Shown: positions 20,902-24,129 of the stretch, one piece after another
How positions within the stretch are numbered: position 1 is the first letter of the stretch
Layout of the letters: each line of letters opens with the position of its first letter
Source: Escherichia coli
GTDB lineage: Bacteria; Pseudomonadota; Gammaproteobacteria; Enterobacterales; Enterobacteriaceae
DNA length: 64,000 bases
Strand: one strand, 5' to 3'
Assembly: GCF_045037415.1 (NCBI RefSeq)
Contig: NZ_CP173438.1
Made by a program: the position numbers and the translations under genes
The notes under the pieces: generated by a model
What the model saw: only the letters and a program-made list of their open reading frames with translations
What the model was told of the DNA's origin: nothing
Databases searched by the model: none

Positions 20902-21729
20902 TTAGCCGCCGAACTGGTCAGGATCGGGACCGAGACGCTTGCCCTGATCGAGTTTTGCAATTTCGCCAAGTTCGTCTTTGTCGAGACGGAAATCCCAGAC
21001 ATCAAAGTTTTCGACAATGCGTGAAGGTGTGACCGATTTTGGGATCACCACCAGGCCGCTATCCAGATGCCAGCGGATAACAATCTGCGCAGGGGTTTTG
21101 CCGTATTTATCTGCCAGATCGCGAATGACTTTCTGATCGAAAACGCCTTTCCCTCCTTGCGCTAATGGGCTCCAGGATTCGGTCTGGATTTTGTGTGTCG
21201 CGTTCCAGGCATGTAGCTGGCGTTGTTGCATCAGCGGGTGAAGTTCGATCTGGTTTATCACAGGCGTCACGCCAGTTTCATCAATCAGGCGTTGCAGGTG
21301 ATGGATCTGGAAGTTGCACACGCCGATGCTTTTGATTAATCCCTCTTTTTGCAATTCGATCATGCCTTTCCATGCTTTGACATAATGGTCGATAGCGGGA
21401 ACGGGCCAGTGCATTAAATAGAGGTCGATATAATCAAGCTGGAGTTTTTTCAGGCTGTCGAGCAGGGCTTCGCGGGGGCGCTTGTGGTCGTCGTTCCACA
21501 GCTTAGTGGTGATGAACAGTTCTTCTCTGTTGACTGAGGCATTTTTCAGGGCTTTGCCGACACCTTCTTCGTTCTTGTAGGCCGCGGCGGTATCAATCGA
21601 GCGATAACCCACTTCTAACGCTTTTTGAATGGCGGTGATTACTTCCTCATTACTTGCTTGCCAGACGCCCAGTCCCAGCTGGGGCATGACATTGCCATCC
21701 TGTAGCTTAATAACGGTTGGATTAGCCAT
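20902..21729 (-). CDS. dkgA: 2,5-diketo-D-gluconate reductase A / methylglyoxal reductase (aldo-keto reductase)
   Basis: 275-aa ORF MANPTVIKLQDGNVMPQLGLGVWQ... with AKR catalytic tetrad context. Confidence 0.95.
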   Translation of the reverse strand: MANPTVIKLQDGNVMPQLGLGVWQASNEEVITAIQKALEVGYRSIDTAAAYKNEEGVGKALKNASVNREELFITTKLWNDDHKRPREALLDSLKKLQLDYIDLYLMHWPVPAIDHYVKAWKGMIELQKEGLIKSIGVCNFQIHHLQRLIDETGVTPVINQIELHPLMQQRQLHAWNATHKIQTESWSPLAQGGKGVFDQKVIRDLADKYGKTPAQIVIRWHLDSGLVVIPKSVTPSRIVENFDVWDFRLDKDELGEIAKLDQGKRLGPDPDQFGG

Positions 21730-21749: not shown

Positions 21750-21773
21750 CTCACCGGAGCAGGCTCCGGTGAG
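21750..21773 (-). other. Intercistronic stem-loop between yqhD and dkgA
   Basis: CTCACCGGAG-CAGG-CTCCGGTGAG, perfect 10-bp stem, directly upstream of the dkgA Shine-Dalgarno on the minus strand; possible partial terminator or processing site. Confidence 0.5.
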
Positions 21774-21833: not shown

Positions 21834-22997
21834 TTAGCGGGCGGCTTCGTATATACGGCGGCTGACATCCAGCGTAATGTCATGATTTTCGCCCAGTTGG
21901 GTCATGCCGTGCTCTTCCAGTTTTTTCAGCAAAGCCGGGATGGAGCTGCCGTCCAGACCGTAGTCGGAGAGGTGGGTCAGCACGCCTAATTGCTCAAAGA
22001 AATTGCGGGTTGCGGCAATCGCGGCGTCAATACGCTCATCGTCTGAACCTTCAGTGATGTTCCAGACGCGTTCAGCATATTGCAGCAGCTTAGCGCGCTT
22101 GGTATCGCGTTTTTCATTCCACAGTGCAGGCAGGACGATAGCCAGTGTTTGCGCGTGATCCAGACCGTGCATCGCAGTCAGTTCGTGGCCCAGCATATGC
22201 GTTGCCCAGTCCTGCGGTACGCCAGCGCCGATCAAACCGTTCAGCGCCTGAGTCGCCGCCCACATGACGTTGGCGCGCACATCGTAGTTTTCTGGCTCTT
22301 TCAGGGCTTTCGGACCATCTTCGATCAGCGTCAGCAAAATGCCTTCTGCGAAACGGTCCTGAATTTTGGCATCAACCGGTTTGGTAACATACTGTTCCAC
22401 GGTGTGTACAAAGGCGTCCACTACGCCGTTAGCCACCTGACGCGGCGGCAGGGTGTAGGTATAAACCGGATCGAGCACGGCAAATACGGGCTGAACATGG
22501 GCAGAATGGAACGCCTGCTTGTCGCCTGTGGTTTTACGGGAGATCACCGCGCCTGCGTTGGATTCTGAACCGGTTGCTGGCAGCGTCAGCACACAGCCCA
22601 TCGGGATGGCGCTTTTAATCTCTTTACCGCCCGTTTGCAGAATGTGCCACGGATCGATATTTTCCGGATAGTTAGCCGCTGCGGCGATAAATTTGGTGCC
22701 GTCCAGTACAGAACCGCCGCCAACCGCCAGCAGGAACGTCACTTTCTGTTCGCGAACCAGTTTCACGGCGTTCATCAGCGTTTCATAAGCCGGGTTTGGT
22801 TCAATACCGCCAAATTCCAGTACGTCCATGCCTTTCAGGGCATCCAGAACTTGATCGAGAACGCCGGTTTTTTTCACGCTGCCGCCGCCGTAGGTAATCA
22901 ATACGCGAGCATCGTGAGGAATTTGTTCGCGTAAACCAGCGATTGCGCCTTTACCAAACAGAATGCGGGTTGGGGTGTGCAGATTAAAGTTGTTCAT
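21834..22997 (-). CDS. yqhD: NADPH-dependent aldehyde reductase (iron-containing ADH family)
   Basis: Track ORF 21834..23021; preferred start is ATG at 22997 ([22 protein letters not shown]...), giving 387 aa. Confidence 0.95.
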
Positions 22998-23133
22998 TAC
23001 TTGCTCCCTTTGCTGGGTCAATATGAGGGCAGAGATCGGTCTGCCTGATGTTTTTCATTGTGGTCGCCAGCGCCGTACCTCTCAATGCTCATTTCTGCCA
23101 ATGTCTTGCCTATTTCTCCAGAGTGCTGGAGAA
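22998..23133. promoter_or_regulatory. Divergent yqhD / yqhC promoter region
   Basis: Intergenic gap between divergent genes; contains inverted repeats (GGCAGA-N6-TCTGCC at ~23025-23042, TCTCCAG-AGTG-CTGGAGA at 23115-23132). No binding sites verified. Confidence 0.5.
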
Positions 23134-24090
23134 ATGCTACAAAATTGCGCACAATCAAATTGCCGCATTATTCCTAAGAAATTACGCGATATGAAACGTG
23201 AAGAGATTTGCCGCTTGCTGGCGGATAAAGTTAATAAACTGAAAAATAAAGAAAATAGTTTGTCAGAGCTGTTGCCCGATGTGCGTTTGTTGTATGGCGA
23301 GACGCCTTTCGCACGCACACCGGTGATGTACGAGCCTGGCATCATAATTCTCTTTTCCGGGCATAAAATCGGTTATATCAATGAACGCGTGTTTCGTTAT
23401 GATGCCAATGAATACCTGCTGCTGACGGTGCCGTTGCCGTTTGAGTGCGAAACCTATGCCACGTCAGAGGTGCCGCTGGCAGGGTTGCGTCTCAATGTCG
23501 ATATTTTGCAGTTACAGGAACTGTTGATGGACATTGGCGAAGATGAGCATTTCCAGCCGTCGATGGCAGCCAGCGGGATTAACTCTGCCACGTTATCAGA
23601 AGAGATTTTATGCGTGGCGGAGCGGTTACTCGACGTGATGGAGCGACCGCTGGATGCGCGTATTCTCGGCAAACAGATCATCCGCGAAATTCTGTACTAC
23701 GTGCTGACCGGACCTTGCGGCGGCGCGTTACTGGCACTGGTCAGCCGCCAGACTCACTTCAGCCTGATTAGTCGCGTGCTGAAACGGATTGAGAATAAAT
23801 ACACCGAAAACCTGAGCGTCGAGCAACTGGCGGCAGAAGCCAACATGAGCGTATCGGCGTTCCACCATAATTTTAAGTCTGTCACCAGCACCTCGCCGTT
23901 GCAGTATTTGAAGAATTACCGTCTGCATAAGGCGCGGATGATGATCATCCACGACGGCATGAAGGCCAGCGCGGCGGCGATGCGCGTCGGCTATGAAAGC
24001 GCATCGCAATTTAGCCGTGAGTTTAAACGTTACTTCGGTGTGACGCCGGGGGAAGATGCGGCAAGAATGCGGGCGATGCAGGGGAATTAA
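23134..24090 (+). CDS. yqhC: AraC-family transcriptional activator of yqhD-dkgA
   Basis: Track ORF 22963..24090; preferred start ATG at 23134 (MLQNCAQSN...), 318 aa with a C-terminal AraC HTH. Confidence 0.9.
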
Positions 24091-24129
24091 ATACGTTCCC
24101 GGTACAGCAACCGGGAACGGGGAAAATCG

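Follow-up and report, generated by a model that had tools for sequence, protein, structure and literature searches.

Genomic Context of the yqhD-yqhC Region

The stretch of the E. coli chromosome analyzed here, 64,000 nucleotides long and hereafter called the window, contains the gene order dkgA, yqhD, yqhC, yghB and metC. The gene yqhC lies on the plus strand, occupying 23191..24090 when read from its conserved start, and encodes a regulator of the AraC family with 299 amino acids and the domains AraC_N and HTH_18; the other genes lie on the minus strand, among them dkgA (20902-21729) and yqhD (21834-22997), the latter coding for an NADPH-dependent aldehyde reductase and being the divergent target gene. 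Pfam models recognize in YqhC the AraC_N domain (6.9e-40; from residue 47 on in the long form, which has 318 amino acids), together with HTH_18 and HTH_AraC, and NCBIfam holds no model specific for YqhC. YqhC and YqhD constitute the main inducible switch for aldehyde detoxification in E. coli, responding to compounds such as glyoxal, furfural and glutaraldehyde, and the yqhD promoter is in use in aldehyde biosensors.

The segment 22900-23300 was matched in 5412 of 5426 complete E. coli genomes, with 90-100% identity. For wider comparison we used 80 species-level loci of Enterobacteriaceae, from which an alignment of 81 sequences was built; yqhD is divergent from yqhC in all 80 loci, and the distance between the yqhD ATG and the yqhC ATG equivalent to 23191 ranges from 171 to 200 nt, mostly 190-198. 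PGAP annotates nothing over 23076-23165 in E. coli records. The yqhD promoter (23057..23085, minus strand) is given in section 19 of PMC6115493, which cites Lee et al. 2010, as TTGAGA/CACAAT with start at C 23050; in the window its -35 is at 23085..23080 and its -10 at 23062..23057, and it is invariant in our alignment. A practical observation concerns the Keio deletion of yqhC (strain JW5849), which takes away part of the N-terminus of yqhD, the Keio forward primer ending in sequence internal to yqhD (PMC8262776, Table 2).

The Palindrome Upstream of yqhC

Within the spacer lies a perfect 24-bp palindrome, ATTTCTCCAG-AGTG-CTGGAGAAAT (23112..23135, with no strand assigned), the arms of which (23112-23121 and 23126-23135) are 10 nt long, 100% complementary and separated by a 4-nt loop. 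An earlier note on this DNA had pointed out the inverted repeat TCTCCAG/CTGGAGA at 23115-23132, which we confirm as the inner part of this longer 10+4+10 structure. The same note had the repeat ending 2 nt before an ATG, a distance that has to be corrected: the 7-nt version stops 1 nt short of ATG 23134-23136, and the full 10-nt 3' arm takes in the A and T of this codon.

The repeat search found a single copy of the 24-mer in the window, and 100 shuffles gave 0 matches even when 3 mismatches were allowed. A count of perfect inverted repeats in the window, with a minimum arm of 10 nt and a loop of 3-10 nt, gave 15 hits at nine loci, against about 0.8 hits expected from a first-order Markov model, an enrichment of approximately twenty-fold. 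Two other repeats of this kind, at 21750-21773 in the gap between dkgA and yqhD and at 24094-24119 in that between yqhC and yghB, are by their position probably intrinsic terminators.

The possibility that the palindrome itself is an intrinsic terminator was discarded, for its stem is followed by GCTACAAAATTG and the terminator scan does not list it. It is no dispersed repeat either (REP/BIME or the end of an IS), having one copy in the window and, among the 5412 of 5426 complete genomes matched, a median of one place per E. coli genome. Rfam 15 shows no family on the palindrome, the only match in the region being a chance-level one to a snoRNA at 23028-23071 (12 bits vs. a gathering score of 45). 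In the 80 species of Enterobacteriaceae both arms lie inside conserved blocks.

The palindrome is not new. A "24-bp palindrome consisting of two 10-bp repeating units" is mentioned in PMC10991953 as a predicted YqhC binding site, and the same 24-bp palindrome is presented in PMC6115493 as a putative YqhC site, both papers citing Lee et al. 2010. As these two citing papers describe it, the palindrome of Lee et al. 2010 consists of two 10-bp units with a 4-bp spacer, adjoins a 'SoxS-like' box upstream of the TTGAGA/CACAAT promoter of yqhD and was proposed as the binding sequence of YqhC; since locus, length and structure match, it is the same object as the palindrome of the window, which is hence already known. 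What the present analysis adds to PMC6115493 and PMC10991953 is the unequal conservation of the arms, the reading as a direct repeat and the issue of the start codon.

The Start Codon of yqhC

The repeat had been placed by the earlier note in the ribosome-binding region of yqhC. This premise is weak, for it rests on the ATG at 23134..23136 (plus strand), which is the start of yqhC in the curated record of K-12 MG1655 only (NP_417483.2, 318 amino acids) and is not conserved. In every other E. coli record inspected, the start given by PGAP is 23191 (299 amino acids). Across the 80 species ATG 23191 is invariant, and ATG 23134 is confined to Escherichia and two species of Klebsiella. The 57-nt extension between the two codons (19 codons, 23134-23190) is interrupted by in-frame stops in the majority of genera and in one genome of the E. 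coli clade (L003); its substitutions within Escherichia are few and mostly non-synonymous, with one stop, that of L003. A GGAG motif stands only 2 nt from ATG 23134, and in most genera another is found 9 nt upstream of ATG 23191. The invariance of the latter codon, the starts chosen by PGAP and the stops in the extension together indicate that the conserved start of yqhC is 23191, with the palindrome 56 nt upstream of it. The curated K-12 start is probably 19 codons too long.

As an observation in its own right, Escherichia, Citrobacter and Salmonella have no GGAG before the conserved yqhC ATG, E. coli showing AAGAAA at 23177-23182; these genera form the same clade that possesses the CAATGT motif described below and the more perfect versions of the palindrome.

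Conservation and Pairing of the Two Arms

The aligned sequences share a gap-free conserved block at 23079-23134, where the loop (23121-23125) alone varies freely. The core of the 3' arm, CTGGAGAAA (23126..23134, plus strand), is invariant in all 81 sequences, with 2.0 bits at 23126-23133. The 5' arm is less constrained, the information content falling to 1.12 bits at 23118 and 0.63 bits at 23121; the C at 23118 is replaced by A in 24 of the 81 sequences and 23121 is altered in 32, in both cases without compensation. Uncompensated changes are encountered even among E. coli: of the 922 genomes with 95-99% identity over 23076-23165, three were sampled, and each has C in place of T at 23115, a substitution that makes the stem less stable (-9.8 instead of -14.3 kcal/mol). 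The inner part of the palindrome, CAG/CTG, is free on one side only. The equal constraint on both half-sites that characterizes a symmetric operator is thus not observed, the 3' arm being invariant and the 5' arm variable. Moreover, 15 bp separate the centres of the conserved cores TTTCTCC and GGAGAAA, which face opposite sides of the helix, so that the binding of one dimer to both would be awkward.

Compensatory change was sought at each of the ten base pairs in the alignment of 81 sequences, and none was detected beyond chance: 83.8% of the cells are paired, compared with 83.7% in shuffled alignments, and pairing as high as that observed was reached in 127 of 500 shuffles. Double changes occur at one pair only, the outermost and least conserved. 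The hairpin is nevertheless stable, with -14.3 kcal/mol for the E. coli stem alone, which is present in both the MFE and the centroid folds of 23100-23200, and it can fold in every species (median -10.9 kcal/mol). Judging from the alignment, this ability follows incidentally from two conserved blocks of sequence, with no selection for pairing.

These data bear on the simplest alternative to a functional palindrome, namely that the two arms are reverse complements by accident and that the perfect 10+4+10 form is specific to one lineage. All ten pairs are found in just 8 of the 81 sequences and eight pairs in 40, and the outermost pair exists only through a T at 23135 that is specific to Escherichia; against an accident speaks the 7-bp complementary core TTTCTCC/GGAGAAA, which is retained in 57 of the 81.

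A Tandem Direct Repeat with a Period of 21 bp

The strongest internal similarity of the conserved block is a direct one. The best direct pair in the profile-profile comparison is that of 23086 with 23107, at an offset of 21, and it defines two boxes on the plus strand. Box 1, TGCTCATTTCTGCCA (23086..23100), is the proximal copy and begins directly beside the -35 element TTGAGA of yqhD (23085..23080); box 2, TGCCTATTTCTCCAG (23107..23121), is the distal copy in this 21-bp period and holds the 5' arm of the palindrome, its TTGCC, TTTCT and C being invariant in the 81 sequences. Box 1 is probably the 'SoxS-like' box of the literature. Secondary peaks at offsets of 10-11 bp suggest that each repeat unit contains two subsites.

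The homologous-protein search gave only close relatives among Enterobacteriaceae, and distant homologues of YqhC were retrieved from a representative search. The motif CTCAATGCAC.ATTCCTGCC.GATGTC.TTGCCyAwTyCTsC is present on unrelated contigs upstream of homologues with 45-57% identity (L087, L088, L089, L091, L093 and L094). A clean 21-bp direct repeat is seen in L091, where the two TTTGCC..ATTCT boxes TTTGCCGAATTCT and TTTGCCTGATTCT are 21 nt apart, and in L087 TTGAAG-17-CACAAT comes after the boxes and ahead of a gene for Fe-ADH. The corresponding sequences are CTCAATGCACGATCGTGCGGAAGCCTTGCCCAATCCTCC in L088 and ATTCCTGCCGATGTCTTGCCTAATCCTGC in L093; in the latter TGGAGAAAA occurs at the same 21-nt distance from TTGCC, and its 5' side, AATCCTGC, cannot pair with it. 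Because this box architecture recurs at distant homologues, we regard the 5' arm as the core of a distal operator half-site. The tandem operator formed by boxes 1 and 2 appears, from these comparisons, to be an ancient hallmark of the YqhC family that has been kept down to 45% protein identity.

Candidate Promoters of yqhC

The 3' arm repeats the box core TTTCTCC in inverted orientation and contains the hexamer TGGAGA (23127-23132), the putative -35 of yqhC. Exactly 17 nt 3' of it the various species present CACAAT or CACACT; in the window the putative -10 is CACAAT at 23150..23155 (plus strand), of which C1, A2 and T6 are invariant. At 23162, G is found in 91% of the alignment and is likely to be the start of the yqhC transcript. 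In a sigma-70 weight-matrix scan, which recovered the known yqhD promoter as a control (mean score 10.1), TGGAGA(23127)-17-CACAAT(23150) ranks at the top of the plus strand, with a score of 6.4 in E. coli and a mean of 5.6 over the 81 aligned species sequences. In L093, TGGAGAAAA is followed by TACTCT 17 nt on. The conservation of the two hexamers, their top rank in the scan and the spacing retained in L093 indicate that the 3' arm behaves as the -35 region of yqhC.

Another pair, TTGCCT-17-GAGAAA, was considered on the ground that TTGCCT is followed by a -10 of the form TATAAA or TACAAT in L091 and L092; it was rejected, scoring 2.7 vs. 5.6 in Enterobacteriaceae and having a -10 without the final T. 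No mapped start of yqhC transcription was found in the supplements of Kim et al. 2012, Cappable-seq and SMRT-Cappable-seq, which were searched by gene name and coordinate prefix.

A different candidate lies upstream of the palindrome. The extended -10-like element TGcCAATGT (23096..23104, plus strand) would direct a start near 23111, so that the RNA would have the palindrome at its 5' end. It coincides with the sensitive stretch seen in the Reg-Seq study (PMC7567609), in which 22975-23135 was mutated and position 0 corresponds to MG1655 3155262, or 23090 of the window. The only sensitive stretch of the yqhC reporter was 0..+20 (23090-23110), and in LB it was +9..+13 (23099-23103), that is CAATG (PMC7567609); the latter fits the extended -10 and a start near 23111. 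CAATGT is present in 22 of the 81 species sequences and absent from the other 59. TGnCAATGT tends to accompany a perfect 9-bp repeat (15/22 vs. 7/59 species), an association confounded by shared ancestry.

Published Data on Binding and Expression

We presume that the strongest ChIP-exo peak of YqhC falls at about 23026-23056, within the core promoter of yqhD and at least 56 bp from the palindrome, taking the offset of NC_000913.2 to be +1978. In EMSA experiments YqhC shifted a probe that spans 22998-23148, as deduced by mapping the primers to the window, and did not shift the negative control 22886-23025 (PMC8262776), while gSELEX gave a single YqhC peak in the yqhC-yqhD spacer (PMC8249747). 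YqhC also affects its own expression: gain-of-function alleles of yqhC raise both yqhC mRNA and a GFP reporter of the yqhC promoter (PMC8262776). A GFP fusion from this work was made exactly at ATG 23134, as shown by its mapped primers, so that it ends at 23133 without CACAAT, and it was still expressed (PMC8262776). In E. coli, then, at least part of the transcription must begin before the palindrome, and, considering also the Reg-Seq results, some probably runs into it.

The Reg-Seq data further list no repressor-type feature at any place in the mutated yqhC region and show no activator- or repressor-like signature on the palindrome (+22..+45) in any of the growth conditions, none of which included aldehyde stress, and its mutations were not accompanied by a drop in RNA level (PMC7567609); the mutated region ends at 23135, which leaves the palindrome at its edge and the proposed -10 outside. 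GlaR is listed as a regulator of yqhC (PMC7567609) and negative control of yqhC by cAMP-CRP has been reported (PMC5297802), in both cases without a mapped site. Separately, the -10 and -35 elements of yqhD form on the opposite strand (23057-23086) a weak rightward promoter-like pair, TTGTGG ... CTCAAT, which lies fully over the yqhD promoter; precisely these two stretches, -43..-26 and -9..+5, are labelled as the -35 and -10 of yqhC in the LB experiment of Reg-Seq.

Interpretation of the Palindrome

With a probability that we set slightly above one half (about 55%), the palindrome combines, at the level of DNA, a distal YqhC half-site, the -35 of yqhC and an inverted third copy of the box core in one composite control element. 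The 5' arm, ATTTCTCC(AG), would be the core of box 2 and hence of the distal copy in the tandem direct repeat with the 21-bp period, and a YqhC dimer sitting on boxes 1 and 2 would activate yqhD-dkgA. The 3' arm CTGGAGAAA would supply the TGGAGA hexamer to a yqhC promoter starting near 23162, and the inverted core that it carries may allow YqhC, bound at or beside it, to influence its own promoter. This composite reading draws on computed features, namely the conservation pattern, the direct repeat, the lack of covariation and the non-conserved ATG, and on the published evidence that YqhC binds a fragment with these sites and regulates its own gene; from these we infer which bases YqhC would contact, where the yqhC transcript would start and what sign the autoregulation would have. 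The autoregulatory YqhC operator that the earlier note had envisaged agrees broadly with the evidence: the palindrome does lie in the binding region and self-regulation is published, but its conservation is unlike that of a symmetric operator and corresponds to a direct-repeat half-site plus the -35 of yqhC.

Accidental symmetry of the half-site and the -35 region is possible, if unlikely. It has in its favor that the conservation of each arm has a separate explanation, in addition to the scarcity of complete pairing reported above, and it leaves without account not only the retention of the 7-bp core but also the recurrence of the inverted third core in L093, a hint that the likeness of the two arms may itself be of use.

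Rather doubtful is the proposal that the palindrome works as RNA, folding into a hairpin in the leader or at the 5' terminus of the yqhC mRNA in Escherichia and close relatives, with transcription starting near 23111 from TGcCAATGT. Such a hairpin could stabilise the mRNA, bury the GGAG-AUG of 23128-23136 and suppress the N-terminally extended frame. The stability of the stem in both predicted folds, the restriction of the Reg-Seq sensitive stretch to 23090-23110 (CAATG in LB), the expression of the GFP fusion with nothing downstream of 23133 and the co-occurrence of TGnCAATGT with the 9-bp repeat all agree with it, the last being weakened by common ancestry. Yet the 81 sequences contain no compensatory change and pair no more than shuffles, uncompensated substitutions reach into E. 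coli, and the 59 of the 81 species without CAATGT still have an invariant 3' arm. Mutation of the palindrome brought no drop of RNA in Reg-Seq, and Rfam has no matching family. The hairpin occluding the ribosome-binding site, which the earlier note had offered as its second option, fails on two counts, for the ATG that it would occlude is not the conserved start and its pairing shows no compensation.

A combination of functions seems improbable to us: as DNA, the palindrome would serve as distal YqhC half-site and -35 of yqhC, and in Escherichia, Citrobacter and Salmonella it would also form a 5'-terminal RNA hairpin, transcribed from the TGcCAATGT promoter, that silences the spurious SD-AUG of Escherichia and stabilises the message.

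Very improbable is a symmetric operator at which a dimeric protein different from YqhC (an unidentified repressor, GlaR or CRP) would use the two arms as equivalent half-sites; this would suit the perfect palindrome of E. coli and the reported effects of GlaR and cAMP-CRP, but is opposed by the unequal conservation of the arms with CAG/CTG free on one side, the 15-bp separation of the conserved cores, the direct repeat common to distant homologues that already accounts for the 5' arm and the lack of a repressor signature in Reg-Seq. The palindrome is also unlike the CRP consensus, which counts against a CRP site.

Comparison with Known Systems

Dimeric activators of the AraC/XylS family, such as XylS at Pm, AraC at I1-I2 and RhaS, use operators that are tandem direct repeats. 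The region upstream of yqhD shares with these operators the two repeats of approximately 15 bp with a 21-bp period and a proximal repeat that adjoins the -35 of the promoter to be activated; its regulator is the product of the neighbouring, divergent gene and has, in common with those activators, an N-terminal domain for sensing and dimerisation and a C-terminal domain with a double HTH. It differs from them in the repeat TGCnyATTyCTsC, which is specific to the YqhC family, and in the inverted third core lying over the regulator's own -35.

The marboxes of MarA, SoxS and Rob are single asymmetric sites of about 20 bp that are bound by monomers. YqhC has the same type of DNA-binding domain as these proteins, and the GCAC found in box 1 of most genera is also a feature of the marbox element RE1. 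A marbox proper was rejected, however, for the YqhC site consists of two phased copies and its regulator possesses a dimerisation and sensing domain; the E. coli sequence, moreover, fits the marbox consensus only in part. With leader hairpins that sequester ribosome-binding sites, such as translational operators and RNA thermometers, the palindrome shares a stable stem that includes GGAG and part of an AUG. It departs from them in that this AUG is not the conserved start, which is 23191, in the lack of covariation and of an Rfam match, and in the putative nature of the transcription of its stem.

For those who engineer or mutate these promoters, the gain would consist in the bases of the operator, which would belong to a phased direct repeat and not to the palindrome as such, the place of the yqhC promoter and the real ATG. 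The points on operator, promoter and start codon would correct the annotation of K-12 and alter no general principle.

The Second Inverted Repeat in the yqhD Leader

The second repeat reported by the earlier note, GGCAGA-N6-TCTGCC, is real but was placed at 23025-23042, and its arms are located instead at 23028-23033 and 23040-23045. On the minus strand this element (23028..23045) would fold into a hairpin covering approximately +5 to +23 of the yqhD leader. Folding species by species recovers the hairpin at the same place in 78 species, which have 62 different sequences (mean folding z -2.36), and in one genome of the E. coli clade (L011) double compensatory changes have converted GGCAGA/TCTGCC to GACAGG/CCTGTC. 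A U-rich tail follows in 65 of the 78 species, which makes the hairpin resemble a terminator or attenuator, or else a 5' stabiliser; Escherichia is without a U-run on the minus strand. The assignment of the hairpin to the minus strand is tentative, since the plus-strand version folds better in 56 of the 81 sequences. The minus-strand leader also shows the conserved pattern ACCCAC...AAGGGA (23038-23046 and 22999-23012), the CCC of which could base-pair with GGG in the Shine-Dalgarno sequence of yqhD, and RNAalifold predicts, without covariation, two pairs of this kind.
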